A stretch of 64,000 nt of DNA from Nannocystis pusilla (GTDB lineage Bacteria; Myxococcota_A; Polyangia; Nannocystales; Nannocystaceae), in NCBI RefSeq assembly GCF_026626665.1, contig NZ_JAPNKE010000002.1, positions 1,229,204 through 1,293,203 on the forward strand, written 5' to 3'. This document shows, one piece after another, positions 1 through 44,648 of this stretch; position 1 is the stretch's first letter; each line of letters opens with the position of its first letter. The position numbers and the translations under genes are program-made. Under the pieces are notes generated by a model. The model had not been told where the DNA came from. It searched no databases and saw only the letters and a list, made by a program, of their open reading frames with translations.

Positions 1-2664
1 CGGGCGGCGGCGACCGACGGCGGCGTGGCGCTCAGCAACGCCTCGGCGAGGGTGCGGTGGGCGCGAGCGAGGCGCGGGGCCCAGTGCGGGTCGTCGGCGG
101 CGAGGACGGTGAGCTCGGCGACGGCGGCGGCCAGCGGGACGCGGGCCTCGAGCGGCCGGCCGCGGACGAGCAAGTTCTGGCCGAGGACGAGGCGCAGCTC
201 GGCGATCTCCTCGCTCGACCAGGTGGTGTCCGGCATGCGCGCGAGGGTGGCCTGGAGGTGCTCGATGGCGGTGTCGTCGTCGACCGAGCCGGCGAGGCCG
301 CGATAGCCGGCGAGCAGGGTCGCCTCGGGCCCGAACAGGCGCGTGCCGGACAGCTCCGACAGCTCGGCGGCGGCGCGGAAGACCGAGGCGGCGTCGTCGT
401 CGTCGCCGATCTCGGTGGCGGCGCGGCCGAGGTGGAACAGGCACCGCGTGCGACGCACGAGGTCGTCGGGCAAGAACCGCTCGAGGGCGACGCAGCCGGC
501 CTGGAGGATCGACCAGGCCTCGCCCGGCTCGGCGAGCTGGGCGGCGGTGATCCGCGCCTCGATGGTGGCGGGGTGAACGACGCCGAGCTCGGCGTCGAAG
601 ATCTCGAGGGCGCGCGCGAGGAGGTCGTCGCGCGCGGCGCCCGGCTCGGTGACGGAGGCGAGGTTGAGGAGGGTGTAGCCGACGTCGCGGTGGCCGGCCG
701 ACAGGGCGCCCTGGCGCACGCTCAGGGCCTCGGTGAAGTAGCGCCGCGCCTCGGCCGAGTTGCGCTGGGCGAGGTTGGCGACGCCGAGGTTGTGCAGGAC
801 GAGGCCGCGCAGGGCCTCGGGAGCGGCGCCGCGAGAGGCGAGGGCGAGGGCGAGAGGCTCGTCGGCGAGGGCGCGCGCGACCATCTCGGGCCGGCGACTG
901 GCGGCGACGATCCGCGAGGCCACGGCCTCGGCCGCGATCGCGTCGCCGCGCGACTCGATGCCGCTGCGCATGGCCCGGGTCAACCACTCGAGCTCCTGGC
1001 CGGTCTCCTCGGAGGTGTTGAGCGAGAGCCGCCCGCGCAGCAGCGCGACCTCGGCCCGCAGCGGGGCGTAGCCGATCTGCTCGGCGGCGGCTTCGATGTC
1101 GACGGCCTGATCGACGGCGTCGTGGATCCGCCCGAGCTTGGCCAGCGCCTCGACCCGCGCCATGTGATTGCGCAGGTCGGCGACGCGCTCGCCGAGCTCA
1201 GGGTCGTCGGGCGCGGGCGGCTCGGCCTTGAGGAAGGCGAGCTCGTGGCAGGCGGAGGGCGGCACGAGATCGCTGGCGGCGCCGAGCGCCCGCGGGGCCA
1301 TGTCCATGTCGGCGATCGAGAGGGCCTTGACGGTCTCGTCGAAGGCGTCGCGCCGGCGATCGAGGCAGCGGCGCTGGCGATCGAGCAGGGCCTCGGTGTA
1401 GCGGCCCTGGTGCTCGGCGAGGCAGGTGTCGCGGTGGTTCTCGGCCCACGAGGCGGCGAAGCGATCGAGCTTGTCGGCGACCCTGGGCCACAGCACGGCG
1501 GCGTAGTTGGGCGCCGCGTCGCGCAGGGCCGTGGCGACGGCGTTGCGCTGAGCCGGGCCCCAGACGCGGGCGATGTCGGCGTCGGCGTCGGCGCACGGGG
1601 ACTCGGCGGCGGCCTCGGGCACGAAGGCGAGGCCAGCGGCGCCGGCGGTGAGGGCGAGCGCCAGGGCGGCGCCGACGAACCGCCAGGTCCGCCCGCGCGA
1701 CGGGACGAGCGCGCCGAGCAGCGCCTCCATCGACGGGTAGCGGTCGCGCGGCTCGGTCTTGAGGCCGCGCATGAGCGCGGCGATGAGCCACGCGGGCACG
1801 CCGTGGTTGCGCGGCGGGGGCCGCAGGTGGCCGTTGGTGATCGCGTGCGAGAGCGCGAGGATGTCGTTGCCGGCGAACGGCGGCAGGCCGAACAGGGCCT
1901 CGTAGAGGGCGACGCAAGCTGAACTGATCGGAGGCCGGCTCGGCCGCGCCGCCGCGCCAGCGCTCGGGCGCGAGATAGGCGGGCGTGCCGAGGATGTCTT
2001 CGCCGTCGTCGCCGACGCGGATCCGCATGCTCTGACTGGCGCCCGAGGACAGGTCGAGCAGGCCCGGGCGATCGGGGGTGGCGCGCACGAGCCCGAAGTC
2101 GAGGACGCAGGCGCGGCCGGTGGCGTCGATCATGACGTTGCCCGGCTTGAAGTCGCGGTGCAGGAGGCCGACCTCGTGGGCGGCGGCGAGGCCTCGCGCG
2201 GCTTGAGTGAAGACGTCGTGGATCTCGCGCCAGGTCCGCGGCCCGGCGGCCAGCCAGGCCGGCAGCGCGGCGCCGCGGATCAGCTCCATGGCGACGTAGA
2301 CCTGGCCCTTGACGACGCCGGCCTCGAGCACGGTGATGACATTGGGGTGGCTCACGCCGGCCATGGCCTGGGCCTCGCGCAGCAGCCGGATCTGGCCCTT
2401 CGACCCGGTGTCGGGCAGGACCTTGATCGCGACCTTGCGATCGAGGAGCTCGTCGTAAGCGGCGTAGACGACGGCCGTGCCGCCGCCGAGGCGCTCGAGG
2501 ATGGTGAACCGACCGAGCCGCGGAGGCAGGGTCGCAGGGACCGAGATCGCGACACCAGGCAGCGACTGCGTGATGTCCACCGAGATCCCCGACGCGTCCG
2601 TATCGGGAATGATGACGCTCATGGGACTCGACCAGTCTTGCACCGACCCGCACGCACGCCCCAA
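1..2664 (-). CDS. Ser/Thr protein kinase with C-terminal TPR-like repeat domain (runs off window start; apparent 1-nt frameshift near 1920)
   Basis: ORF 1198..2664 (-) begins with a canonical Hanks kinase domain (GxGxxG-like LGGGTAVVY, VAIK, HRDFKPGNV, DFG, APE). After ...DQFS it degenerates into R/P/A junk. The shifted minus frame continues with subdomains IX-XI (CVALYEALFG...RYPSMEALL) and then hundreds of residues of TPR-like repeats. That frame is the antisense of the listed + ORF 57..1922. It continues past position 1. Confidence 0.8.
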
Positions 2665-3269
2665 CCGCGAGGTCGCGAGGCCGATGCAGCGCGTTCAAGC
2701 GGCGCCGCCGGCCCGTGGCGCGTGTCCGCCCGAACGCGACGCGCAGCGGGCGCTAATCATCGCCTGTCCCAAAGTTTTAAATCGGTGTGGGCGACGGAAC
2801 GCCGGCAGAAGCGCGCGCAAGGCGGTCAAACCGCCGTTCTCCTGAAGTTGCCGCGGGCCCGTGATTGTGCGGTTGATCAAGCAACGAGCGGCGATCGTAG
2901 CGACGAAAGACCGAGTATCGGCGGGCGTACCGTGCATCGACGCGATCGTGGCTCGTATGCGGAGTGGGGGCGGATCACGGGCGCCGCGCGGCGGCGAATG
3001 GCACTTGTGCAGTGCGCCACGAATGCGGCGTTTCGGAGTGGTCGAGCTCGCCGTCGGCGCGTGAGACCAGAGTGGCGAAGAGGCGGCGGCGACGCTGGAG
3101 CCGCCGCGCCGTTTTGAGGGGCACGACTGCAAACGCGTGAAGACCGGGCGCGGGGGCGCCGGCGTGGTCGGCGTCACGCTGGGCGGCAGATCGGCGAGCG
3201 AGCGGCCGGTGGGGTTCGTGCCTCGCGCGAGGGTCGACGTCGGCGCGGGGACGTCGGCAGAGAATGACG

Positions 3270-3289
3270 ATATGTCTTTCGGGACATAT
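3270..3289. repeat. 20-bp perfect palindrome ATATGTCTTTCGGGACATAT, a member of the window-wide motif family
   Basis: Read directly: atatgtc-tttcgg-gacatat in the 1.1-kb non-coding gap between the kinase start and guaD. Confidence 0.6.
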
Positions 3290-3549
3290 TGATGACTGGG
3301 GCGAGACCGGGCCGGCGGGGAGGACGGCGCGATGGCTCGGCGGTGAGACTCGTTGCACAGGTGGCGCAGGAGCGCGGCGCGCAGGCGCGAGCGGCGAGGG
3401 CTTCGCGGTCGGCGCCGGAGAGGCCGGGCTTGTCGCCGACGGAGGGCGGCGAGGCCGGCGAGGTCGAGGGAGCGCGAATACGGGTGGCTCGTGGGCGTTG
3501 CGAGCGGTGCTCGGCGATGCGGGACGTCTGGAACGGACGGCCTCGTGAC

Positions 3550-3705
3550 TGCGCTCGCGGAGGGACGAAGGGCTCGCGGGCGGCGCGAACACGACGTCGC
3601 ATTCGCGGAGGCACGCAGGTCTCGCGGGCGGCGCGTACACGGGGCGCGCTCGCGGAGGCACGCGGGCGAGGGCGGGGCGAACACGGGTCGCGCTCGCGGG
3701 TCCAC
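3550..3705. repeat. Degenerate tandem repeat, ~40 bp x3 (CTCGCGGGCGGCGCGWACACG...TCGCGGAGGCACGC)
   Basis: Direct repetition visible in the DNA upstream of guaD. The same periodicity shows in the junk ORF 3174..3770 (VPPRMRRRVRAAREPFVPPRAQ). Confidence 0.6.
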
Positions 3706-3787
3706 GTTGGACTCGTAAGCGCTCGTGCGAGCACTTTGGCGCGGGACCGGATTGCGCGCCGCGGCGGCAACGGGCACCTTCGGCCGG

Positions 3788-5082
3788 ATGTCGACGATCA
3801 CCGACGGCCCCGCGAAGACCCCGTCCCGCGCCCGCGTGCTGCGGGGGCGCATGCTGTGTCCCGATCCGCGGCAGGCGAAGATCGAGCGCATCGCCGACGG
3901 GCTGCTGACGATCGGCGAGGACGGACGGATCGCCGCGATCGCGCCGGCGCCGGAGGACTGCACGCTGCCGCAGTCGTACCCGGGGGCGGTGATTTTGCCG
4001 GGCTTCGTCGACACGCACGTCCACTTCCCGCAGACCCGCGTGATCGGCAGCGCGAGCGGGCCGCTGCTCCGCTGGCTCGAGCGGACCGTGTTCCCCGAGG
4101 AGCAGCGGTTCCACAGCGTGCGCTACGCGGCGGCGGTGGCGTGGGAGTTCTGCGAGGCGATGATCCGCCAGGGCACCACGTGCGCGGCGATCTACGCCTC
4201 GAGCCACGAGGCCGCCACCGACGTGCTGTTCCAGGAGCTGAGCCGCTGCGGGCTGCGGGCGCTGGTCGGCATGACGCTGATGGATCGCGGGGCGCCGCCG
4301 GGGCTGCTCGTCGGGGCCGACGAGGCGATCGCGGGCTGCGAGCGGCTCATCGCCCGCTGGCACGGTCACGACGGCCGGCTCGGGTTCTGCGTCACGCCGC
4401 GGTTCGCCCTCGCTGCACGCCGGAGCTGCTGCGCGCGGCCGGGCGGCTGGCGGAGGCGCACGGATTACATGTCCAAACGCACCTGTCCGAAAATACCGAT
4501 GAGTTGGTGCACACCGCGACGGCGTTCCCGGCGGCCCGCGATTACCTCGAGGTGTACGAGTCGCACGGGCTCAGCGGGCCGCGCTCGGTGTTCGCGCACT
4601 GCGTGCACCTGTCGGACGGCGAGTGGGATCGACTGGCGGCGGCCGGCGGGGCGGTGGCACATTGCCCCGACAGCAACTTCTTCCTCGGCAGCGGCTGCAT
4701 GCGCCTGCGGGCGGCCACCGGGCGGGGCATCCGCGTCGGGCTCGGCACCGACGTCGGCGCCGGCCGCAGCTTCTCGCTGCGCCAGGTGGTCGCGAGCGCC
4801 TACGACGCGAGCCTCATCGCCGGGGCGCCCGCGACGGCCGAGGAGCTGTTGTGGCTGGCGACCCGGGGCGGAGCTTGCGCGCTGGGGATGGCGGCCGAGC
4901 TCGGTTGCCTGCAGCCCGGTCACTCGGCCGATCTGGCGGTGATCGACGCGCCCGAGATCGCGGCCGCCGACGGGCTGTTCGACGCCCTGGCGTTCCGGCG
5001 CGACGCGGCGCCCGCCCGCGCGGTGTTCGTCCGCGGGGCGCTGCTGCGGGGCGCGGTCGCTGCCGGTCCCGAGGTGGTGTAA
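3788..5082 (+). CDS. guaD: guanine deaminase (amidohydrolase family), apparent 1-nt frameshift near 4412
   Basis: N-terminal half in frame of ORF 3725..4942 (PGFVDTHVHFPQTRVIGSASGPLLRWLERTVFPEE...). C-terminal half in frame of ORF 3289..5082 (LHVQTHLSENTDE...HCPDSNFFLGSGCMRL...GLGTDVGAG). Junction RFALA|CTPELLRAAG needs one extra base. ATG at 3788. Confidence 0.8.
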
Positions 5083-5090
5083 ACCGAGGC

Positions 5091-6512
5091 ATGCTCCGCG
5101 AGACATATCCCCTGTTCCTCGGCGGCCGCGCGGTGCAGGCCAACTTCGACCTGCCCGTGCTGGACAAGTTCTCCGGCGAGGAGGCGGCCCGCGTGGCCCA
5201 GGCCGACCCGGGCACGCTCGACGCGGCGATCGCCGCCGCCGCCGGGACGACGCGGGCGATGGCCGCGCTGCCGCCCTACGCCCGCCAGGCCGCGCTCGAG
5301 CACTGCGCGCGCCAATTCGAGGCGCGCGCGGCCGAGCTGGCGATGGTGCTGTGCATCGAGGCGGGCAAGCCGATCCGCGACGCCCGCGGCGAGGTGGGCC
5401 GCCTGATCGAGACGTTCAAGGCCGCGGCGGCCGAGGTGACGCGACCGGCCGGCGAGGTGCTGGCGATGGCGAGCAGCCCGCGCCTGCGAGGCTACCGCGG
5501 CCAGTGGAAGCGGGTGCCGATCGGCGCGTGCTCGCTGATCTCGCCGTTCAACTTCCCGCTCAACCTGGCGGCGCACAAGATCGCGCCGGCGATCGCCGCG
5601 GGCTGCCCGTTCGTGCTCAAGCCCGCCAGCGCGACGCCGATCTCGGCGCTGCTGATCGGCGAGGTGCTGGCCGAGGCGGACCTGCCCGAAGGGTCATGGT
5701 CGATCGTGCCGTGCCCGCGCGCCGGCGCCGACGCGCTGGCCAGCGACGACCGCCTCAAGCTGCTCAGCTTCACCGGCTCGCCGGCGGTCGGCTGGGCGAT
5801 GAAGGCCCGCGCCGGCAAGAAGAAGGTGGTGCTCGAGCTCGGCGGCAACGCGGCCTGCGTGGTCGACGAGACCGCCGACCTCGAGAAGGTGGTGCCGCGG
5901 CTCGTCACCGGGGCGTTCTACCAGTCGGGCCAGAGCTGCATCAGCGTGCAGCGGATCATCGCCCACACGTCGATCTACGCCGAGCTGCGCGAGCGCCTGG
6001 TCGCGGCCGTCCGCGAGCTGCGCGTCGGCGACCCGCGCGACGAGGACACGTTCATCGGGCCGATCATCTCCGAGAAGGAGGCGAGCCGGATCGCCGCGTG
6101 GATCGACGGCGCGGTCAAGGCCGGCGCGCGCCTGTTGTGCGGCGGCCAGCGCGACGGGGTGATGGTGGCGCCGACGCTGCTCGAGAACGTGCCGCGCGAC
6201 CAGCCGATCGCCGCCGAGGAGGCGTTCGGGCCGGTGGCGCTGCTGTCGGAGTTCGCCAGCTTCGACGAGGCGCTGTGGCAGGTCAACGACAGCAAGTTCG
6301 GCCTGCAGGCGGGCGTGTTCACCCGCGACATCGACCGCATGCACCAGGCGTGGGACTCGCTCGAGGTCGGCGGGGTGATCATCAACGACGTGCCGTCGTT
6401 CCGCGCCGACCCGATGCCCTACGGGGGGGTCAAGGACTCCGGTCTCGGTCGCGAGGGGCTCCGCTTCGCCATCGAGGACATGTCGGAGATCCGGATGCTC
6501 GTGGTGCGGTGA
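5091..6512 (+). CDS. NAD(P)-dependent aldehyde dehydrogenase family protein
   Basis: MLRETYPLFLGG...FTGS...ELGGNA...GQSCISVQRII: ALDH catalytic Cys and Glu motifs. GAGG RBS before the ATG at 5091. Upstream residues of listed ORF 4623..6512 are read-through. Confidence 0.85.
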   Translation: MLRETYPLFLGGRAVQANFDLPVLDKFSGEEAARVAQADPGTLDAAIAAAAGTTRAMAALPPYARQAALEHCARQFEARAAELAMVLCIEAGKPIRDARGEVGRLIETFKAAAAEVTRPAGEVLAMASSPRLRGYRGQWKRVPIGACSLISPFNFPLNLAAHKIAPAIAAGCPFVLKPASATPISALLIGEVLAEADLPEGSWSIVPCPRAGADALASDDRLKLLSFTGSPAVGWAMKARAGKKKVVLELGGNAACVVDETADLEKVVPRLVTGAFYQSGQSCISVQRIIAHTSIYAELRERLVAAVRELRVGDPRDEDTFIGPIISEKEASRIAAWIDGAVKAGARLLCGGQRDGVMVAPTLLENVPRDQPIAAEEAFGPVALLSEFASFDEALWQVNDSKFGLQAGVFTRDIDRMHQAWDSLEVGGVIINDVPSFRADPMPYGGVKDSGLGREGLRFAIEDMSEIRMLVVR

Positions 6513-6516
6513 TGTG

Positions 6517-6556
6517 TCTTTTCGGGCATGTCGTCAGGGACATGTCCGAAAAGACC
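6517..6556. repeat. Perfect inverted repeat (17-bp arms GTCTTTTCGGGCATGTC / GACATGTCCGAAAAGAC, 6-nt loop) between convergent genes; motif family; possible bidirectional terminator or protein-binding palindrome
   Basis: Read directly. Starts 5 nt after the aldehyde dehydrogenase stop and ends 6 nt before the SDR stop. No U-tract. Confidence 0.6.
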
Positions 6557-6561
6557 TCTCG

Positions 6562-7365
6562 TCACACGACCGGGACGGTGCCGCCGTCGATGGTGGTCTC
6601 GCTGCCGTGGATCGAGGCGGCGCGGTCGGAGACGAGGAAGGCGACGAGCTCGGCGACCTCCTCCGGCCGGCCGGGGCGGCCGATCGGGATGCCGCCGAGC
6701 GAGGTCATGAGGCCGTTGCGCGCGGTGGCCTCGTCGGTGCCGGCCTCGGCGGCCAGGCGGACGACGAGGGCGTGGGCGGCGGCGGTCTCGACGTAGCCGG
6801 GGGCGATGCTGTTGACGCGCACGCCCTGGGGGCCGAACTCCTTGGCGAGGCCCTTGCTGTAGGTGCTGAGGGCGGCCTTGGCCGCGGCGTAGGCGAGGGT
6901 GGACTCGTAGAGCGGCATGCGCCGCTGGATCGACGAGACGTGGAGGATGACGCCGTAGCGCTGGGCGACCATGCCGGGCAGGAAGGCGCGGTCGAAGCGG
7001 ACGGCGGCGAGCAGGTTGAGGTCGAGCTCGTGGCGCCACTGGTCGTCGTCGAGGGCGAGGGCGCCGCCGCCGGGAGCGGTCGAACCACCGGCGTTGTCGA
7101 CGAGGATGTCGAGGCCGCCGAAGGCGTCGGTCACGGCGCGGACGACCCGCTCGACGCCCTCGCGGGTGGAGATGTCGGCCCGCACGAACAGGGCCGGCTC
7201 CTGTCCTTCGGGCAAGGCGGAGCGCGCGGTGGTGGCGACCGACGCGCCGCCGGCGGCGAGCCGACGCACCATCGCGGCGCCCATGCCCTGCGTGCCGCCG
7301 GTGACGAGGACGCGCTTGCCGGTGAATTCGCGGGGGTCGTAGAAGAGGGGCGTTGCCTGGCTCAT
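6562..7365 (-). CDS. SDR family oxidoreductase
   Basis: VLVTGGTQGMG (Rossmann TGxxxGxG), NAG, and a Y-x3-K triad region (YAAAKAAL). Confidence 0.85.
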   Translation of the reverse strand: MSQATPLFYDPREFTGKRVLVTGGTQGMGAAMVRRLAAGGASVATTARSALPEGQEPALFVRADISTREGVERVVRAVTDAFGGLDILVDNAGGSTAPGGGALALDDDQWRHELDLNLLAAVRFDRAFLPGMVAQRYGVILHVSSIQRRMPLYESTLAYAAAKAALSTYSKGLAKEFGPQGVRVNSIAPGYVETAAAHALVVRLAAEAGTDEATARNGLMTSLGGIPIGRPGRPEEVAELVAFLVSDRAASIHGSETTIDGGTVPVV

Positions 7366-7451
7366 GGGTCATCTCCGGGCGAGCGCACGCGCGGCGCGTG
7401 GTTCGCCGCCGCCGATTGCTCGGACCGCGAAGATGGGACGAGTCTGGTGGA

Positions 7452-7700
7452 GTGACAAGTACGCACGAAAAAGTCAGCCACTCACCCGCAGGTAAGTCCG
7501 AGCCGCTGACGCCGGAGGCGGTGGCCGAGGCGGTGGGCGAGGCGCTGGCGCTGCTCGAGGGGCGCTGGAAGCTGCGGATCTTGTTCAACCTGTTCGGCGG
7601 CAAGGTGCTGCGCTACTCGGAGCTCGAACGCGCCATTCCGGAGGTGTCGCAGAAGATGCTGGCGCAGGTGGTGAGCCGAGGACGGCGGCTCGGGGCGTGA
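7452..7700 (+). pseudogene. HxlR-family transcriptional regulator, truncated after the HTH region (~65 aa of an expected ~110-120)
   Basis: ALALLEGRWKLRILFNLFGGKVLRYSELERAIPEVSQKMLAQ is a typical HxlR wHTH. The ORF stops 15 aa later. The 76-bp tandem repeat array lies immediately downstream. Confidence 0.55.
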
Positions 7701-7759
7701 GAGGAGCGCAGCGAGCAGGCGCCGGCGAGCGCGAGCGAGGCGGAGCGTTGGGGTTGCGA

Positions 7760-8110
7760 GGCGGATGTCTCTTCGGACAGATGATCGAGGATGTCCGAAG
7801 AGGCAGGTGCTCGCGGCCGTGAGGCGCGGGCGTTTCGGACAGGCGCGCGCTTCGGTCGCGGAGTGACTGTCGCTTCGGACAGGTGCTCGCGGCCGTGAAG
7901 AGCGGGCGTTTCGGACAGGCGCGCGCTTCGGTCGCGGAGTGGCTGTCGCTTGGGACAGGTGCTCGCGGCCGTGAGGCGCGGGTTTTGGACAGGCGCGCTT
8001 CGGTCGCGGAGTGGCTGCTTCGGACGGGCGGGGCGCGGCGCCAGCTGTCGCTTGGGACAGGCGCTCGGCGCTGCAGGGCGGGGCTGTCTCTTCGGACAGG
8101 TGAACCGGCG
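7760..8110. repeat. Tandem repeat array, ~76-bp unit x ~3.5-4, each unit with two motif cores (TGTCGCTTCGGACAGGTG and CGTTTCGGACAGGCG)
   Basis: Units starting ~7803, 7877, 7953 and 8051 align with few substitutions. Terminal copy is ...CTGTCTCTTCGGACAGGTGAACCGGCG. Confidence 0.8.
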
Positions 8111-8195
8111 CTACTCGAAACGCAACGCCGGAGCGCGGTCGCGACGAAGCCGCCCGGAGTCGCGGGACGCCGGGCGGACGGGGCTCGGGCGCGGT

Positions 8196-8579
8196 TCAGC
8201 GCAGCGAGTTGCGGAGCCGCGGGATGGTGTCCGGGAGGACGACGCTGACGAGGATGCCGAGCGGCGCCTTGATGCAGTCGACGGCCATGCCCATGCGGTA
8301 CTTGTCGGTCAGGTCGACGACGATGATCATGACGTTGCCCTCCTCGCCGAGGCGCAGGAGCGTCTGATAGACGAAGTCGGGCACCGGCAGCTGGGACTTC
8401 TTGAGCGCCTCGGTGATTCGTTCACAGAGGATGTTGAAGAGGGCGCACGCCTTGGGCGAGCTGCGGATGCCGGCGACCGACATACCGGACGTCTTGCTGA
8501 AGACGTCGATGGTGGCGAGGCCGCCCATCAGGCCGTCTTCGATCTCGGTGAGGGTCGAATTCACGTCTTTCAGGTTCAT
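8196..8579 (-). CDS. Roadblock/LC7 domain protein (MglB-like)
   Basis: 127 aa with unbiased composition (MNLKDVNSTLTEIEDGLMGGLATIDVF...) and the size/pattern of Roadblock/LC7. Locally lower GC. GGAGGCACACC-type RBS. Confidence 0.7.
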   Translation of the reverse strand: MNLKDVNSTLTEIEDGLMGGLATIDVFSKTSGMSVAGIRSSPKACALFNILCERITEALKKSQLPVPDFVYQTLLRLGEEGNVMIIVVDLTDKYRMGMAVDCIKAPLGILVSVVLPDTIPRLRNSLR

Positions 8580-8929
8580 CTCGGTGTGCCTCCGGGCCGC
8601 GATCAGCGAGCGAGGACCACACTACATGGAGCCGGGGTCCGATCGGTGGGGTGTCGGCGAGAAAGCGGCCCTGCCGTTCCGCGGGGGCGAGCGCGTCGCG
8701 GGTTGCACGCGTTCCGCGAAAGCGGCCGCAGGGCCACCTCCGCGGCGGTTTGGCGTCGTTTACGGTTGCGCAAACGGCGCCAGGCGGCGAGAAATCCCCT
8801 TGGTCCGGGGGCATCCGGGGGCCTGGGGGGCCGGCGGCCGTAGATCACCCCCGCCCGGTCCCGGCGGGTCGGCCGGCCAACTGTCCTGCCAGTCAGGGTG
8901 GTGCGGAGAGGGGGGCGCGCTCGCAAAGG

Positions 8930-9250
8930 GGAGCCGGCGGCTGTCCTTGAGGGCAGGTCAGGAGCGCCCGGCGACGCGCGGCGGTCGATCGGAGGCTGTC
9001 CTGGGGGACAGGTGGCGTCGCGGCGGTAGCGAGCATCGGTGGAGTGCCGTCGCGGCGGCGGTCTCGAGCATCGGTGGAGTGGCGTCGCGGCGGCGGTAGC
9101 GAGAGCGGTTGCCCGGTAGCGACCGCGGCGAGGTCGGGGCGGCGGACTCGAGCATCGGTGGAGTGGCATCGGGGCGGTGGTGGCGAGAGCGGTTGCCCGG
9201 TCGCGACTGCGGCGAGGCCGGGTGCACCGACCTCGCCGCTCGAGCTGTCC
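8930..9250. repeat. Complex direct-repeat region: CGAGCATCGGTGGAGTGSCGTCGCGGCGGCGG x3 and GCGAGAGCGGTTGCCCGGTMGCGACYGCGGCGAGG x2, flanked by CTGTCC-N5-GGACAGG palindromes
   Basis: Read directly. The periodicity reappears as RSLPGNRSRYRRRDATPPMLE repeats in junk ORF 8958..9227. Confidence 0.6.
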
Positions 9251-9276
9251 TTGCGGACAGGTTTTTTAGATGTCTC

Positions 9277-10658
9277 TCAGGCCAGGAGGGCGGCGCACGG
9301 GGTGTTGGAGTAGCCGTCGCCGTCGGCGTTGGTGGCGCCGACCTCGGTGGCCTCCGGCACGACCGACTGCAGGCAGGCGAGCAGGATGTCGGAGGTGTTC
9401 TCGCTCGACGGCGAGTGGTAGTGCTCGGCGGGGTAGCGCAGGGTGCCGCCGCCGCGGCCGGCGACGATGCAGGGCTGGTCGAACACGCTGTGGGTGTAGC
9501 CCGAGGCGGCGTCGCTGCCGAGGATCACGACCGAGTTGTCGAGCAGGTTGCCGTCGCCCTCGACCGTCTCCTTGAGGCGGTTGAGCAGGACCGCGAAGCA
9601 CTCGACGGTCTTGATCGTGCACTGGTCGACCGCCTCGTTGTCGGCGGTGTCGTGGGTCATGTCGTGGTGACCCTTGGCGTGGCCGAGGCTCTTGAAGATG
9701 TGGTAGCCGACCGAGCCCGAGAACTGGATGCTGACGATCCGGGTGAGGTCGCAGCGGAACGCCTCGATGATGATGTCGACCATGGCCGCGTTGACGAGCT
9801 CGATCGGCTCGGCGCCGTCGATGTCCATGTTGGTTTCGATCGGCATGCCCGGCAGGGTGCAGGCCGGCGGCAGGGTCTCGATCTGCTTCTTGATCTGCTC
9901 GACGCTGGCGAGGTGGGCGTCGAGGCGGATCTTGTCGGCGCTGCCGACCCGCAGCTTGAGCGCCTTCACGTCCTCGCGCACGGCGTCGAGGATGTCGACG
10001 CGCGGGCCCTTGGTCGGGTCGTCGGGCGGGACGAAGCTCTCGAACAGGGCGGCGAAGGCCTCCTGCGGGTTGAAGAAGGGCGGCAGCGGCTGGTCGGGGC
10101 CCTTGTGCGAGAGGTACTGCAGGGTCGGCCCCTCGCCGGTGATGACCCGCTTCGACACCGCGAGCTGCAGCGACGGCAGGAAGGTCTGAGCGCCGACGGC
10201 GGCGGCGGCGACCTGGTCGATCGAGGGGCCGCCGAACTTCGACGAGTAGCTGTTCTCGGCGTGCGGCAGCTCGATGAAAGGGAAGCCGGAGAAGAAGCCG
10301 GCGCAGCCGTCGTGGTGGCCGCGGCGGTGCTTCGACGAGGCCTTGATGTCGAAGCCGGTGAGGAGGTTGCAGTAGTCGCGCACGCCCTCGAGCGCGGCCA
10401 GCTGCGGGTCAGCGGGTAGTTCGGCCCGGTCTCGGCGGGGGCCCAGCGGTTGCCCTTGCCGACGTCGGCGGGGTCGACGAGGGCGACGCCGTTGCCGAAG
10501 TGCCAGGTGATCATGCGCCGCGGCAGGTTGGTGCCGTCGGCGTGGGCGGTGCCGTTCGAGTTGAGCATGGCCTCGAGCAGCGGGAGCGCGAGCGCGACGG
10601 AGGTGCCCCCGGCGACGCCGCGGAGCAGGGTGCGACGGCTGAGTTGATGGCGCTTCAT
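9277..10658 (-). CDS. DUF1552 domain protein (planctomycete/myxobacterial family), apparent 1-nt frameshift near 10405
   Basis: N-terminus MKRHQLSRRTLLRGVAGGTSVALALPLLEA (Tat-like signal) lies in the frame of ORF 9966..11570. The remainder is ORF 9277..10383 (RDYCNLLTGFDIK...). Junction NYPLT|PQLAALEGV needs one extra C in a CCC run. AAGGAG RBS. Start is 14 nt after the upstream gene's stop. Confidence 0.8.
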
Positions 10659-10672
10659 GACTCGTGCTCCTT

Positions 10673-12445
10673 TCACTCCGGGGTGCCCACGCGCAGGAAG
10701 GCGGGGCTGGCGACGAGCTCGGCGAGGAGCTCCTTCATGCGGTACTCGTTGTCCTCGAACGCCTGGTCGAGGTCCTTCAGCGCCCCGGCCTCGCCGGGCA
10801 CCTCGAGGTGGCCGGTGGCGTGGCGGAACAGGTTGCGCACGAGGCAGCGCGTGACCGCGGGGCTCTGGCGCAGGAGGCTGCCGAGCTCGCGGGCGCCGTC
10901 GAACTCGCCGAGGCCGTCGAGGTTGCTGACGGTGTCGAGGGTGACGCCGTTCTCGACGAGGCGGAACACGCCGATGCCGTCGAAGTTCTCGAGGCCTAAG
11001 CCGATGTCGTCCATGAGCTTGTGGCAGCCCGAGCACGAGGGGTTGGTCTGGTGCTCGGCCAGGCGGTCGCGCATGGTCGGGTAGTCCTCGCCGACCGGCA
11101 GCTCGGTGACGACGTCGGGCGGCGGCGCCGGGATGCCCTGACACATCAAGACCTCGCGCACGAACTTGCCGCGCAAAGTCGGCGAGGTGCTGCTGATGTG
11201 CGCGTAGGCGGCGAGGAAGCCGCCCTGACCGAGCAGGCCGCCGCGCTTGCTGTCGACCGGGAGGTCGAACTGCTGCCAGGTGTCGCCGAGCACCGCAGGG
11301 TCGGGGATGAGGCCGTAGAGCGCGGCGAGCGGGCCGTTGGCGAAGGTGTAGGGGGCGTCGAGGAAGTCGCGGAAGTCGGCCTCGCGCGTGAAGGCGATGT
11401 CGTCGATGAGCTTGAGCGCCTCCTCGCGCATGGCGGTCCCGAGGGCGGGCGACCAGGCGGGGAAGGTGGCGGGATCCTTGGGCAGCGCCTCGAGGGTGCG
11501 CAGGCGCAGGACCTCGGCGAAGAAGCCGCCGAGAGCGCCGCGCGCGGCTGGCGTTTCGAGCATGGTCCAAGCGACATCCCGGACGGCGTCGGCGGTGGCG
11601 AGGCCGTCGCCCTCGCCGAGGTCGATGAGCTCGCGCGTCGGGGTGGTGTCGAGCAAGAAGAAGCTGAGGCGCGTGGCGAGCTCGACGCCGGTCAGCACCC
11701 GCTGCGCCGGATCGTCGGGATCGGGCTCGCCGACCTCGACCTGGTAGAGGAAGTAGGGCGACTGCAGCAGGCCGGCGACGGCGTATTCGCGGCCCGACTC
11801 CCAGCTGCCGAACGCCAGCGCGGCGTCGCGGCCGACCGCGCCGTAGCGATCGATCTCGGCCTGGGTGAGGCTGCGGCGCCAGGCGACGCGGCCGAAGTTG
11901 GCGACGAACTCCTTGTGACAGGCCTCGTCGTCGGCGCCGGTCGGCACGCAGGTGTGGTAGCTGGCGAGGATGGCGTCGTCGGCGGCGGCCGCGACCTTGC
12001 GCGCAGACTTCTCGTAGGTGTCGACGGCCTGATCGCCCAGCGCGAGCTGGGCGGCGCCGATCGACTCGAAGCCGTTGAGCGCGCTGTCCGGCGGGGTCTC
12101 GACCTCGGCGGCCGCGGCGTCGCCGAGCAAGTAGGCGACGGAGCTCCGGTACTGACGCGCGAGAAGGAGGCGCAGCCGCGCGGGGGCCGGAGCGAACTCT
12201 TCCCCACCGCCGTCAGTCGGGTCGGTGCCTTCGGTCGGATCGCCGTCGGTGCCGGCGGAGTTCGGCCCGCCGGTCTCGGTGGGATCCTCGCCGCCGGTCA
12301 GGGTGGGGTTGCTGGCGCTCTGGTCCTGGCCGGCGCCGTGGTAGCAACCGCCGGCGAGGCTCGCCGTGAGAGTGAGAAGGACCGCGAGCTCTCCCGGACC
12401 TTGCGGCCTGGATGGTGCGCGGGCGAAACGAGGCTGCCTGGGCAT
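10673..12445 (-). CDS. DUF1592/DUF1585/DUF1588-type lipoprotein, the usual partner of DUF1552 proteins
   Basis: Start MPRQPRFA with lipobox LTASLAGGC and AAGGAG RBS. Body contains a CxxCH-like motif (CSGCHKLMDD) and the conserved DUF158x/159x blocks. Immediately upstream of the DUF1552 gene. Confidence 0.8.
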   Translation of the reverse strand: MPRQPRFARAPSRPQGPGELAVLLTLTASLAGGCYHGAGQDQSASNPTLTGGEDPTETGGPNSAGTDGDPTEGTDPTDGGGEEFAPAPARLRLLLARQYRSSVAYLLGDAAAAEVETPPDSALNGFESIGAAQLALGDQAVDTYEKSARKVAAAADDAILASYHTCVPTGADDEACHKEFVANFGRVAWRRSLTQAEIDRYGAVGRDAALAFGSWESGREYAVAGLLQSPYFLYQVEVGEPDPDDPAQRVLTGVELATRLSFFLLDTTPTRELIDLGEGDGLATADAVRDVAWTMLETPAARGALGGFFAEVLRLRTLEALPKDPATFPAWSPALGTAMREEALKLIDDIAFTREADFRDFLDAPYTFANGPLAALYGLIPDPAVLGDTWQQFDLPVDSKRGGLLGQGGFLAAYAHISSTSPTLRGKFVREVLMCQGIPAPPPDVVTELPVGEDYPTMRDRLAEHQTNPSCSGCHKLMDDIGLGLENFDGIGVFRLVENGVTLDTVSNLDGLGEFDGARELGSLLRQSPAVTRCLVRNLFRHATGHLEVPGEAGALKDLDQAFEDNEYRMKELLAELVASPAFLRVGTPE

Positions 12446-15640: not shown

Positions 15641-16059
15641 CGGCGTGGCATCTCCGCGCGGCGAGTGCTGGCGATCGCTGGCAGCGTGGCCGCCTTTGCC
15701 TGTCCCTGTCCCGCCTGCGCGTCTGCATGAGGCGAGTCCGCGGGCGCGAGGTGTCGAGCGTGCCGGGACTTGCTGCCTGTGCGCCCCCGTCGGGCCTCCG
15801 CGTAATCACGGGCGAAGCTGCGCGCGTCGATGAACGGTGAGCAACACGTTTACGAGGCTGTGCCCCGCTGCGGGCGCGCCTCGTCGAGTTTCGGACGATG
15901 AAGCGCGGCCGTCCGGCCCGGCAATGGTGCAACGAGCGGCCGCATGTCGCCGATCCATCGCCGCGCCACACGACGCCCCGGTCGGCGGGGGAGGCCATGC
16001 CTCCAGCGCGCTCGCTCGCGCGCGGAGGGATGTGCGCGGAGGCGGTGAGCCTGGCGACC

Positions 16060-16140
16060 AGGACATGTCCCTTGGAGAATGTCGGCCGGGCCATGTTGTA
16101 TAGGACATGGCCTTTAGGGCATGTCCTTCAGGGCATGGCG
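16060..16140. repeat. Motif cluster (GGACATGTCC / GGGCATGTCC / GGACATGGCC x5)
   Basis: Read directly, downstream of the vWA lipoprotein gene. Confidence 0.6.
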
Positions 16141-22529: not shown

Positions 22530-22793
22530 CAACGCAGTGACACCGACGGCCGCGGCCCGACGCTTCGTCGCGGGGCCGCGGCCTGCGTCTGAAGCACGCC
22601 GCGCTGACGCTCCGCCGCGGGGCGACACGGCGGCCGTCGCTGCTTGCGGAGCGCGCTGCGACGCCGCGGGCGGGGCGCTCCGGCGCGGGTGCTGTCGGGC
22701 AGCCGAGGTCGTCGAGCCGGGCTGCCTGGCCTCGGGAGCATGTCCCCAAGAGCCTGCCCCTCGGAGCATGCTCCGAAGGACCTGCCCTGCGGG

Positions 22794-27073: not shown

Positions 27074-27802
27074 TCATTCCTCGGCGGCCCAGGCGAACCG
27101 CGGCGGGACGGCGATCATGGCGAAGCGGACGGCGGCCAGGGCGTCGGCGGCGGGCGAGGCCGGATCTTCGGCGGCCAGGGCGGCGAGGTCGTGCGGGCCG
27201 GGGCCGAGCTCGGCGAGCTCGTCGAAGTCGACGCCGGCCCACCAGGCGGCGCCGTCGATCGTGACGTCGAGCGCGCCGCCGACGTCGAGGTCGAAGGGAC
27301 CGACCCGCAGGCCCTCGATGGTGCGGCTGCCGCGGAGCACGGGGGCGACGTCGAGGTCGGCGGTGAACTCGAAGGACATGTCCGCAGAGACAGCCGTGCC
27401 GGCGAACCGGGCCGCGCGCCCGCCCGGCGCGCCGTCCTGGGCGCCCGGCTTGGCCTGCGTCTTGAGCCAGGTGACGCCGTAGTCGAGCATGGCCGAGCGG
27501 ACCTGACCGGGCAGGACGTCGAGCTCGCCGAGCGCCTGAGGCCCGGGGTCGAGCAGGTCGACGGGGGCGACCGCGGCGAACTCGGCGGCCGCGGTGGCGC
27601 ACAGTTCGGAGGAGGCGGCCGCGGTGGCGCACAGGTAGAGCGGGCCGAGGCCGACTTCGGCGCGCGTGAGGGTCACGGTCCAGGCGCCCGCGGTCAGCTC
27701 GGCCGCGGCCCCGCGCGCCCGCAGCGGGGCCTGGAAGGCCGGCTCGCCGGTGGCGCCGCAGGCGGCGCAGAGCAGGAGGAGCATGGCTGGTCGGAGGGAC
27801 AT
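27074..27802 (-). CDS. Hypothetical lipoprotein
   Basis: MSLRPAMLLLLCAAC lipobox. 242 aa. Confidence 0.45.
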   Translation of the reverse strand: MSLRPAMLLLLCAACGATGEPAFQAPLRARGAAAELTAGAWTVTLTRAEVGLGPLYLCATAAASSELCATAAAEFAAVAPVDLLDPGPQALGELDVLPGQVRSAMLDYGVTWLKTQAKPGAQDGAPGGRAARFAGTAVSADMSFEFTADLDVAPVLRGSRTIEGLRVGPFDLDVGGALDVTIDGAAWWAGVDFDELAELGPGPHDLAALAAEDPASPAADALAAVRFAMIAVPPRFAWAAEE

Positions 27803-27814
27803 GCGCGAAAGGAC

Positions 27815-27880
27815 CGGTGACGAGGGACAGGTGCGAGAGGACAGGTCTGGAGGGACAGGCGGCTAGAAGTGCAGGGTGAG
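27815..27880. repeat. Motif cluster (GGGACATGCGCGAAAGGACCGGTGA, GGGACAGGTG, GGACAGGTC, GGGACAGGCGG)
   Basis: Read directly, between the lipoprotein start and the TBDR stop. Confidence 0.55.
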
Positions 27881-30524
27881 GGTGCCCATGACGCTGAGCG
27901 GGGGGCCGGCGGCGAAGTGGCGGGCGGGCAGGAGGGAGGATCGGGCGGGTGCCCCAGTCGGACACGAAGTTGTACTCGGTGGCGGCCCAGCGGCGGGCCA
28001 GCAGGTTGAAGGCCTCGACGCCGACCTCGACGACCGACCAGCGCACGGCGGCGCTGGCGTCGAGGAGGTGGACGGGGTCGGCGAACTGTCCGTAAGGCAA
28101 TGGCCGCGGGGACAGGTAGGAGTAGCCGAGGCCGACGCGCAGGCCGAGCGGGCGACCCTTGAGCTCCACGAGGTCCTTGTCGAGGCCGATGTCGGCGCGC
28201 ACGACGACCGGCGGGACGTAGGGCAGGAGCTGGCCGGGGACGTAGGGCGGGGAGGGGTTCTCGGCGGTGGCCGGCGGCGGGGCGCGCAGGACGGCGTGGA
28301 CGTAGGTGACGCTGCCGGCGGCGACCAGCCACGGGAGCGGGCGCGCGATCAGCTGGAGCGCGGCGCCGGCCCGCCGCGTCGGACCGACTTTCTCGAGCCG
28401 GCCCTCCTCGGGGTCGAAGGCGAGGTCCTGGGCGAGGAAGGTGGCGAAGCCGGCGGCGCTGAGCTGGAGGCGACCGCCGAGCGGGCTCATGCGCACGCCA
28501 CCCTCGGTGCTGTGGACCTTGGCGAACGGGGCCCGCTCGCCCTCGTCGAGCTGGCGCGCCTGCGGCGAGCGGTAGCCCTGGCCGTAGGCGGCGAACAGGC
28601 TGACCCAAGGGACAGGCGCGACCTCGAGGCTGACGCGCGGGCCGGCGGCCACGCCGGTGGCGGTGCGGCGGTGACCGACGAGGTGGCTCTCGACCTGGTA
28701 GGGGGCGATGAAGTTGCCGAGGCGGTCGTCGATGTCGTAGTGGAGGACGTCGGCCCGACCGCCGCCGCGCAGGCGCACGCGCTTGCCGAGGCGGAGGTCG
28801 AGGTCGCCGTAGAGGCCGACGTCGCTGGCGAGGACGGTGGCGTCGACGCGCCGGTCCCAGGTCTCGTTCTGCGGCGCTTGCAGCAGGTTCTGCGCCTGCT
28901 GGATGTTGTGGATCCGGGCGGCGGCGCCGACCTCGAGGGCGGCGTGGAACCACGGGGCGGGGCGCCATCCGGCTGTCCGATGGGACAGGCGCATGCCGCC
29001 GCCGAAGTCGCGGTTCTGCTGCTCGATGAGGTCGCCGCGGCCGACCCACTGCGGCATGACGACGCCGCGCTGGGTGTAGCCGGTGAAGTTCTCGCGGCTG
29101 TGGAGGTCGACGAGGGCGGTCCACACGGCCATGCGGGTGACCGCGCCGCCCTCGCCGCGGCGCTCGAGCTCGAGCGAGAGGTGGCCGCGCGCGGCCGAGG
29201 CGGACTGGCTGTTGGCCGAGGGGTCGCCGTAGCTGTCGTAGAAGCCGACGACGCCGGCGGCGACGTCGTCGCGGCGCAGGACGCCGGCGAGGCCGGCCCG
29301 CGCGGCGTAGGCGGCGACGTGGACCTTGCCGCGCCAGCCGCCCGCGGCCGAGAAGGCGAACTGGCCCATGGCCATGCCCGAGAGGCCGCCGCGGTTCATG
29401 CCGAAGCCGCGGGTGCGACGGACGGCGGCGGCGGCGAAGGTCTCGTCCTCCTGGCCCTTGGGGGCCCACAGGACGAGCTGGCGGAAGGTGGCGAAGGAGC
29501 CGCCGGTGCTGCGCAGCTGGATGCCGCGGCGCGGGACGGCGAGGTCGAAGTCGATGCTGCCGGCGACGGCGAAGTCGCCCTGCCGCGGGTCGTAGACGCC
29601 CTCGGTGACGCGGATCGATCGTACGGTCTCGGGGACGATCCAGTTGAGGTCGGCGTAGCCCTGGCCGTGCAGGTGCGAGACCTGGTTGAGCGGCAAGGCG
29701 CCGGCGGTGATCTCGATGTCCTGGCCGTGCGCGGCGTTGAAGCCGCGCAGGGTGATCTCGTGCGCCACGGCCTCGCCCTCGGCCCGCGCGACGTAGACGC
29801 CGGGGGCGCTGCTCAGCATGTCGGCGGCGCTCTGCCGCGGCGGGGCGGCGAGGACGTCGCGCTCGACGACGAAGTCGCTGGCGGCCCGCGGCGGCGGCCG
29901 CCGGCTGCGCGCGGCGACGTCGAGCACCGGCTCGGGCTGGCTGGCCGAAGGGGCAGGTTGGGACGGGCTGGCCGAAGGGGCAGGTTGGGACGGACCCGGC
30001 TGGCTGGCCGAAGGGACAGGTTGGGGCGGACCCGGCTGGCTGGCCGGAGGGACAGGTTGGGAGGGGGCCGGCTGGCTGGCCGGAGGGGCAGGTCGGGAGG
30101 GACCCGGTTGGCTGGCCGAAGGGGCAGGTTGCCCGGGCGGGGCCGAAGGGGCAGGTTCACCGGCGGGCGCCTCGGCGGGCTGGGCCGGCGGGGCGAAGTT
30201 GAAGGGCACGCGGATCTTGACGGCCACCGCGACGTCGTCCCGGCGCGCCGGGTCGAACCGCCACTGCTTGACCGCGGCGACCGCGGCGTCGTCGAAGGCC
30301 GCGCCGCCGCTCTTCAGCACCTCGACGGCGCCGACCCGCCCGTCGGCCTCGACGGTGACCGCCAGCTTGACCGCGACGACGTCGCTGCGCGCCTCGGCGA
30401 GCGGATAGACGGCGTCGACCCGGGTCCGCGGGCTCGGCGGGACGACCGCGGGCGCGGCCCAGCCCGGCGAGGCCCACAGGCACGCCGCGAGGCAGGTGCA
30501 GAGCGTGGCGCGAGCGCGTGGCAC
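27866..30524 (-). CDS. TonB-dependent receptor with N-terminal TonB-C-like domain and Pro-rich repeat linker; apparent 1-nt frameshift near 27935
   Basis: Signal peptide, TonB-like block (VKLAVTVEADGRVGAVEVLKSGG...AVKQWRFDP), SQPxPSxPAPPA repeats, plug and barrel. The true C-terminus ...PLSVMGTLTLHF* (terminal aromatic) is in a shifted frame. The listed ORF instead runs on to 27066 in the wrong frame. Confidence 0.8.
29930..30170. repeat. ~30-bp tandem DNA repeat encoding the Pro-rich linker of the TBDR (coding)
   Basis: GGCTGGCTGGCCGAAGGGGCAGGTTGGGACGG repeated ~7 times; translates on the minus strand to ...SQPGPSQPAPSASQP... Confidence 0.6.
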
Positions 30525-35814: not shown

Positions 35815-36110
35815 GCGCTCGGCAGGGGTGAGGGACATGTCCGAGAGGGCATGTGATCGGGGGCATGTTTTTTCGGGCATGTCCGAAGAGGCAGGCTTCG
35901 CGGGCGGTGAGCGCGGGGTCGGCGCGGGCATGTGTTCGGGGGGATGTTTTTTCGGGCATGTCCGGAGAGGCAGGCTTCGCTTGGTCGGTGCGGGCACGTG
36001 CTCGGGGCATGCGCTCGCGGACTCCGCGGGACAGAGGGCGTTCGAGGGGCGGGCGGACATGTCCTCGGCGACATGTGCTCGCGGGCATCCGCGATGAGCA
36101 GGTCGCGGGC
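35815..36110. repeat. Dense motif cluster with a ~80-bp direct repeat (GGGCATGTTTTTTCGGGCATGTCCGRAGAGGCAGGCTTCGC x2) upstream of the RND efflux operon
   Basis: Read directly. At least 8 GGGCATGT/GGACATGTCC cores in 300 bp. Confidence 0.7.
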
Positions 36111-41861: not shown

Positions 41862-41985
41862 AGACGGCGGCGGGTTCGCGCGACGCTGGTGTCCCTGGCG
41901 ACATGTCCGATACGACATGCGCCCAGGGGCATGTCCAGGGAGACATGCGCTTACGGGCATGTCCCGGGCGACATGCGGCAGCGGC
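41848..41985. repeat. Motif cluster (GGGACATGTCTTCAGGGACATGAAGAC ... GACATGTCCGATACGACATGCGCCCAGGGGCATGTCCAGGGAGACATGCGCTTACGGGCATGTCCCGGGCGACATGCGG)
   Basis: Read directly. Spans the last codons of czcA and the convergent gap to the GGT gene. Confidence 0.7.
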
Positions 41986-44576: not shown

Positions 44577-44577
44577 G

Positions 44578-44648
44578 ATGTCCCAGAGGACATGTGCCAG
44601 TGCGCATGTCCGTCGATGCCTGTCCTTTCAGGCATGTTTGAACGAACA
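44578..44648. repeat. Motif cluster (GATGTCCCAGAGGACATGTG, GCATGTCCGTCGATGCCTGTCCTTTCAGGCATGT) between mtnP and the PfkB kinase
   Basis: Read directly. Ends ~20 nt before the PfkB start. Confidence 0.6.

Follow-up and report, generated by a model that had tools for sequence, protein, structure and literature searches.

Repetitive extragenic palindromes of enterobacteria and pseudomonads (REP/BIME) are imperfect palindromes of ~20-40 nt that occur in clusters of alternating orientation, carry a 5' GTAG and are associated with a REP-flanked RAYT (Y1 transposase) (Nunvar et al., 2010, PMC2817692). The motif described here forms an array in an intergenic spacer in a 64,000-nucleotide stretch of Nannocystis pusilla DNA (the window; 72.6% G+C), and is like REP/BIME elements in being a short imperfect palindrome that is extragenic, very abundant and clustered, that often lies between convergent genes and just after stop codons, and whose copy number varies between strains. 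The array in this spacer also contains an inverted doublet that resembles a REPIN. However, there are several important differences. Specifically, array copies are mostly direct rather than alternating (nine of ten here, with other clusters forming direct 14-bp tandems), no GTAG is evident by eye beside the Nannocystis core in the site listings, and neither RAYT nor other transposase domains were found in the 30 window genes scanned. Because alternating orientation, GTAG and RAYT are thus either absent or not evident, we do not call the motif a REP in the strict sense, and it is apparently an undescribed member of the short interspersed palindromic repeats. Many of its dispersed clusters are 14-bp-phased tandem palindromes, which sets it apart from described REPs where, to our knowledge, such phasing is not a feature. 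We found no relevant literature on REP-like repeats of Nannocystis or other myxobacteria, and the motif family appears to be undescribed.

Two other repeat systems invite comparison. Mycobacterial interspersed repetitive units (MIRU) are VNTR loci for which small translationally coupled ORFs have been described. Like MIRU-type minisatellites, the array consists of intergenic tandem units of tens of bp in a GC-rich genome with strain-variable copy number. Unlike MIRU, where a long unit is dispersed at many loci, its 76-bp unit is confined to one locus and there is no sign of small translationally coupled ORFs at the array. The regular spacing of short palindromic repeats is also reminiscent of CRISPR arrays, but here the ‘spacers’ (~20 bp, within a period of ~38 bp) are themselves repeated, no cas genes or Cas domains were detected in the 30 neighbouring genes scanned and there is no Rfam match. 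An initial sequence-only reading of this locus had already excluded CRISPR.

The array is located between the 3' ends of a gene for an HxlR-type regulator and a convergent gene coding for a 127-aa protein (Table 1). Its center is a tandem repeat detected by Tandem Repeats Finder with 92% matches and a score of 365, in which copy-to-copy identity is 92-95% (95% between units 1 and 2) and the three units are distinguishable at diagnostic positions. The sequence-only reading had described a ~350-bp array of 76-bp units; units of this length are indeed present, though they cover only 214 bp, and the rest of the ~340 bp motif-rich stretch (7764-8102) is a wider motif cluster. This stretch contains ten matches to CTTCGGACAGG with ≤2 mismatches, nine on the plus strand and one inverted, and the form taken by the motif at this locus is CTGTC-N6-GACAGG. 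Two cores per unit had also been proposed, and these are readily seen ~38 bp apart, the unit being composed of two ~38-bp subunits, one of which (‘A’) has the full palindrome CTGTCGCTTCGGACAG while the other (‘B’) has the right half alone, GTTTCGGACAGG. Each of the two inter-motif segments occurs three times in the window, always in this array, where shuffled sequences predict 0.01-0.11 occurrences. As a long repeat the 76-bp unit is therefore restricted to this locus (7804-8017), and what is dispersed elsewhere is the ~18-bp core alone. A degenerate motif copy at ~8009 flanks the 76-bp units, and the two terminal copies begin at 8044 and 8083. The doublet at the other end of the stretch has a predicted RNA fold of -27.6 kcal/mol (z -4.0); its first copy is orthologous to a copy in the closest complete relative, N. 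pusilla GCA_049060185.1 (L044), and its inverted copy is absent from that genome. Note that two long ORFs across the array, 7883-8248 and 7950-8843, should be ignored in annotation.

Table 1. Positions of the features discussed in the text. Gene coordinates come from a crude codon-usage map and start codons are approximate.
Feature	Position in window	Strand	Basis or remark
Short-chain dehydrogenase (SDR) gene, intact, divergent from HxlR	6562..7365	-	Pfam adh_short/adh_short_C2, E 1e-43 to 1e-45
Truncated HxlR ORF (pseudogene)	7452..7700	+	72 homologous codons (7452-7667) + 10 read-through codons, then TGA
Deletion junction GCGCAG|GTGGTGAGCC	7667..7668	.	alignment to L044
Retained native post-stop spacer	7668..7763	+	alignment to L044
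Inverted motif doublet, 14-bp hairpin	7764..7806 (arms 7766-7779, 7792-7805)	+	arms 93% complementary
76-bp tandem array, 2.9 copies	7804..8017	+	same array x3.0 in L051/L054; absent from L044, L001, L046
33-bp sub-repeat GCTGTCGCTTCGGACRGGCGGGGCGCGGCGCCA, ~1.5 copies	8009..8075	+	copy count read by eye from sequence
Last two motif copies	8044..8100	+	orthologous to L044 copies
Convergent gene for 127-aa protein	8196..8579	-	no Pfam match
14-bp-phased intergenic clusters, up to 6 consecutive units	16050-16133, 22725-22790, 27786-27860, 35836-35890, 41888-41975, 44577-44640		

The regulator gene is like other members of the HxlR family (PF01638) in its N-terminal 72 residues, which are 88-92% identical to Nannocystis HxlR proteins, and in having a divergent SDR partner, an arrangement that is found across phyla. 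Specifically, the same divergent pair occurs at loci from Verrucomicrobiota and Alphaproteobacteria (L005, L007, L017, L027), and the SDR gene is the probable regulatory target of HxlR. The SDR protein itself has its nearest relatives within Nannocystis, with 98% amino-acid identity to that of Nannocystis sp. RBIL2 and 92-95% to those of N. punicea, N. exedens and N. bainbridge. On the other side of the array, an identical 127-aa protein is present on 12 contigs (genomes, metagenomes and SRA runs), in each of which the HxlR-SDR cassette adjoins.

The HxlR ORF was thought from the outset to be truncated, ~65 aa in and 50 nt before the array. The truncation stands, and the distances are corrected here: from a GTG start at 7452 the ORF runs through 72 homologous and 10 read-through codons to a TGA at 7698-7700, which leaves 63 nt up to the first motif copy and 103 nt up to the first 76-bp unit. 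It matches only positions 1-39 of the 91 in the Pfam profile and does not contain a complete wHTH domain; with profile positions 40-91 missing, the recognition helix lacks its end, and both wing and C-terminal part are gone. Among 120 HxlR homologues listed, all exceed 100 aa except a few on very short contigs. Every Nannocystis homologue among the matches listed is 116-134 aa long, and intact orthologues at related loci are 122-134 aa long. The 82-aa query also aligns over at most 93% of its length to Nannocystis homologues, versus 99% to some others. These comparisons indicate that the ORF is a pseudogene and not a naturally short variant.

The lesion was defined by global alignment to L044, whose flanks are 96-97% identical to those of the window, and this alignment is unambiguous. 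The window lacks 172 bp of L044 (positions 3217-3388) that take in codons 73-126 of HxlR together with its stop codon and a further 7 nt, and this deletion has near-identical heptamers, GGCGCAG and GGCGCGG, at its borders. The sequence directly following the junction is native post-stop spacer, reading GGTGAGCCGAGGACGGCGGC...CGCCGGCGAGCGCGAGCGAGGCGGAGCG..., in which a 30-bp insertion relative to L044 (7694-7723) supplies the new HxlR stop codon. The first motif copy is reached 97 nt after the junction, there is no motif sequence inside the remaining HxlR ORF, and three-frame translation of 7650-8250 revealed no remnant of the lost C-terminal half downstream of the array. Since native post-stop spacer is kept between the junction and the first motif, the array did not insert into HxlR, and by this alignment the gene was cut short by a deletion that is separate from the array. 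A 10-bp direct repeat, GCGCTACTCG, at 7610 and 8108 was considered as a duplication scar and dropped, as L044 reads GCGCTGCGGG at the second site.

We compared the window with 15 related Nannocystis loci that were gathered via the SDR protein, HxlR homologues and the 127-aa downstream protein. Synteny with four species stops at window positions 7667-7678 and restarts at 8126-8135, and the intact HxlR of relatives runs on ...SQKMLAQQLRRLESDGLV... to its full length. Alignment with orthologous loci had been proposed as the way to reveal a full-length HxlR without an array; full-length HxlR is indeed present in relatives, none of which has a naturally short version, but there it is accompanied by arrays too. 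All relatives with an intact HxlR have a motif array of their own lineage in this spacer, between the HxlR stop codon and the convergent gene for the 127-aa protein. This combination of an intact gene and a different array is observed in RBIL2, N. punicea, N. exedens, N. bainbridge, two N. pusilla genomes and several metagenome or SRA contigs. For example, the spacer contains five ~36-bp units in RBIL2, three 39-bp units in N. punicea and ~100-bp units in N. exedens, and in two further loci (L049 and L050) 74-bp (2 x 37) units are repeated 2.3-2.7 times downstream of an intact HxlR. As each intact-HxlR relative has an array of its own, we conclude from these alignments that the spacer between HxlR and the 127-aa gene is an old repeat hotspot and that arrays are compatible with an intact gene.

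The comparison with L044 also reveals how the present array is put together. The first motif copy and the last two have orthologues in L044, which places the last two copies, as judged from this alignment, in an ancestral cluster. The middle measures ~75 bp in L044 versus ~260 bp in the window, where it includes the inverted copy and the 76-bp units. The 76-bp array is thus best described as a lineage-specific expansion within a pre-existing cluster, separate from the gene deletion. The suggestion that the motif can amplify locally is borne out by a 76-bp unit found at this locus only and by a different array in the same spacer of each lineage. A second early suggestion, that of a replication-slippage hotspot, agrees with an old repeat hotspot of varying copy number, slippage itself being the inferred part.

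Two additional relatives show other changes nearby. In L047 (GCA_026626585.1, ~3654-4049) a 1-nt insertion removes the HxlR stop codon and extends the protein to 131 aa, and in L053 a ~380-bp GC-rich, motif-free insert is located between HxlR and three motif copies. These changes indicate that the HxlR spacer is indel-prone.

Copy number was also compared among close strains. Two loci from other sequencing runs, L051 and L054, have flanks 98.2% and 97.9% identical to the window, respectively, and both span the spacer. Counted from the SDR start to the stop of the 127-aa gene, the distance is ~831 bp in the window, ~746 bp in L051 and ~712 bp in L054. Tandem Repeats Finder reports 3.0 copies of the 75/76-bp unit in each of them relative to 2.9 in the window, so a collapse to one unit is not seen in independent assemblies. 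The 33-bp unit, in contrast, is present in 3.6 (L051) and 2.6 (L054) copies by the same program versus ~1.5 copies counted by eye in the window. Variability between strains, which the sequence-only reading had proposed to check, is therefore observed, and from these counts the array behaves as a VNTR whose copy number varies between close strains. Both strains also have a larger HxlR deletion, GACGCCGGAG|GTGAGCCGAGG, that leaves ~22 codons and has a right end within 3 nt of that in the window. The presence of the same array together with a larger deletion sharing this right end indicates that the HxlR truncation is real and clade-specific, with two allelic states. It also indicates that HxlR is in decay, being down to ~22 codons in these sister strains, and a common right end for the two deletion alleles hints at sequential decay or a fragile site.

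Overall we consider it likely that this locus is a repeat hotspot next to a separate, deletion-made HxlR pseudogene, with a motif that is probably REP/BIME-like. Two alternative explanations bear on the array and the lesion. The sequence-only reading had raised the possibility that the array, or its expansion, disrupted HxlR, with motif units inserting into or overwriting its 3' half. The 76-bp array and the truncation do co-occur in the window, L051 and L054, and two different HxlR deletions have a common end point immediately upstream of the repeat-rich spacer. This explanation is nevertheless very improbable given that the deletion is clean, that 97 nt of native spacer separate the junction from the first motif, that the ORF remnant is free of motif sequence, and that relatives with intact HxlR have arrays in place, those of L049 and L050 being of similar size. 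An assembly artefact, in which copy number, the deletion or both would come from misassembly of a repetitive GC-rich region, has the least to recommend it and we regard it as extremely unlikely. Repeats do trouble assemblers here, as a short-read contig that is probably from the same strain (L052, run ERR2215891) begins within the array at window position 7912. This same contig, however, shows 0 mismatches and 4 gap positions against window positions 7912-10863, a region that takes in the right-hand third of the array, the three 76-bp units differ at diagnostic positions, and the different runs that gave L051 and L054 cross the spacer with both the 3.0 unit copies and a deleted HxlR.

The explanation that we favor, a hotspot with a separate deletion, can be formulated as follows. 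The spacer is an old hotspot for a Nannocystis-wide family of short palindromic intergenic repeats, and in the lineage of this strain a pair of neighbouring motif copies with their spacers (38 + 38 bp) was duplicated in tandem to give about three 76-bp units. Gain and loss of units may occur by replication slippage or by unequal recombination between the ~37-bp-spaced copies. HxlR was truncated by one 172-bp deletion between the two heptamers, and this loss may deregulate the divergent SDR gene. By analogy with REP/BIME, the motif most likely forms small hairpins at transcript 3' ends that would act as a terminator or a 3'-end protector, and it may spread or persist in convergent spacers because insertions there would do little harm.

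There are several practical consequences of this explanation. In annotation, 7452-7700 should be labelled an HxlR pseudogene. The conserved SDR-HxlR cassette is without its dedicated regulator in this lineage, and the resulting natural pairs of intact and deleted strains can be used to look for the targets of this regulator. The array is also a ready VNTR marker with which to type close Nannocystis strains. More broadly, the motif family, at ~1.5 sites per kb, is the probable cause of many contig breaks in the 11-13 Mb genomes of Nannocystis and probably accounts for much of their hypervariable intergenic DNA. The current understanding of bacterial repeats is left unchanged by these points.

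Beyond this spacer the motif has a consensus of ~18 bp, CMTGTCC-N4-GGACAKG, with 7-bp arms and a 4-nt loop. In the non-coding DNA of the window no 7-mers are more over-represented than GGACATG and GGACAGG (26-27 observed versus 2.5-3.5 expected), and half-sites occur at 4.28 per kb in non-coding versus 0.62 per kb in coding DNA, with one-mismatch control words at 0.5-1.1 per kb non-coding. Allowing ≤3 mismatches, the 18-mer has 98 sites in the window versus 15 ± 3.6 in shuffles, and 73 of the 98 sites fall in apparently non-coding DNA, which makes up ~20% of the window. Nannocystis loci all have the 18-mer at a density of 1.25-2.8 per kb, and 39 loci of other phyla, including high-GC actinobacteria, do not exceed 0.47 per kb. 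Among the loci sampled the motif is thus, by these counts, enriched only in Nannocystis. By eye, motif clusters are found in six of the seven convergent spacers of the window, and three neighbouring spacers have retained clusters in every species despite changes in cluster sequence and copy number. Many of the dispersed clusters are exact 14-bp tandems composed of the palindrome GGACATGTCC plus 4 bp, and we know of no described bacterial repeat with this 14-bp-phased palindrome architecture. Half-sites also occur alone and in direct repeats, as in the ‘B’ subunits and at 27825-27853.

A strand bias is also evident, as the asymmetric form GGACAGG is on the plus strand in all ~10 spacers between minus-strand genes. 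The plus strand is G-rich in genes of both orientations as well as in spacers (GC skew of ~+0.1 to +0.35), and C-rich Rho-utilisation sites oriented with transcription were dismissed because this richness is the same in genes and spacers. The strand skew of the window may follow the replication strand and not transcription, two influences that are hard to separate within 64 kb. In addition, UCACCUGUCCUUUC resembles a mimic of the 16S rRNA 3' tail (anti-Shine-Dalgarno), a likeness that does not apply to CATG-type copies.

One array with a motif-like sequence was considered as a family member and set aside. Units of 36 bp (x4.6) and 27 bp at 29939-30167 (GGCTGGCCGAAGGGGCAGGTTGGGACG...) form an in-frame part of an ORF with domains of the TonB_C, Plug and TonB-dependent receptor types, where they probably encode a proline-rich repeat linker instead of being intergenic.

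We also looked at what the motif may form as RNA. The ‘A’ unit with its flanks gives a predicted stem-loop of -14.3 kcal/mol (z -2.6), as expected for a short imperfect palindrome, and 308 of 469 core pair positions are Watson-Crick. Complementarity outside of the 7-bp arms is at chance (32% observed versus 30% expected), so that hairpins do not in general reach past the core. The ‘B’ subunit forms no hairpin (z 0.16). The 76-bp unit as a structured RNA was likewise rejected, as its z values are -1.2 on one strand and 0.0 on the other and folding is limited to the palindromic cores. A search of the whole window with Rfam at the gathering score gave 0 matches, and a search of 7400-9400 at an E-value threshold gave chance-level miRNA matches alone (E of at least 0.4). 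More extensive structure is present at 6516-6556, where a motif-built 16-17-bp hairpin between the convergent Aldedh and SDR genes is kept in seven Nannocystis genomes. Four of its pairs have undergone compensatory changes (one position reads AU, GC, CG or GU), and its z values are -6 to -7. This hairpin looks like a candidate bidirectional terminator.

It is the core sequence that is conserved rather than an extended structure, and this fits a protein-binding site equally well. Thus, motif copies could be putative DNA sites for a Nannocystis nucleoid-associated or regulatory dimer that recognises GGACAKGTCC, with arrays serving as binding platforms. Congruent with such sites are the strong conservation of the core with flanks that lack extra complementarity, the half-sites that occur alone and in direct repeats, the exact 14-bp phasing of many clusters, and cluster positions that are stable across species while the sequence turns over. 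We nevertheless consider binding sites of this kind an unlikely explanation, as no candidate protein is known, the clusters are concentrated in convergent spacers and at the 3' ends of genes and not at promoters, close strains differ freely in copy number, and the copy at 6516-6556 has the compensatory stem changes that are typical of a hairpin. It is similarly doubtful, though conceivable, that the GGACAKGTCC palindromes are an undescribed genus-specific element that organises the genome instead of a passive REP-like repeat. Such an element could be, for example, a set of sites for a dedicated protein or a self-amplifying palindrome that is independent of RAYT. Support for a genome-organising role may come from the frequent exact 14-bp phasing, from clusters that are stable in position while changing internally, and from the strand-biased G-rich variant; the VNTR adjacent to HxlR would then be one visible case of it.

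Several features close to the array deserve mention. The sole terminator-like site in 6400-9400 is a motif followed by six T (CTGTCCTTGCGGACAG-GTTTTTT) at 9245-9268 on the plus strand, with no plus-strand gene upstream of it. Together with a ~180-nt well-conserved non-coding block (8700-8880) upstream of the 127-aa gene, this site might mark an unannotated transcript or leader. A second hypervariable array is found at 9020-9222, between the 127-aa and DUF1552 genes, with an 84-bp unit (x2.1), a 35-bp sub-period and a motif copy on either side (8995 and 9244). Relatives lose synteny with the window at ~9026-9200, and L001 and L044 have either a much shorter array here or none. Finally, ~2 kb at 1800-3840 has no confident gene in the crude map and contains a 48-bp tandem repeat (x3.2) at 3551-3699. 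This region is hypervariable between species, with the alignments of L002-L004 breaking at ~3000-3740.
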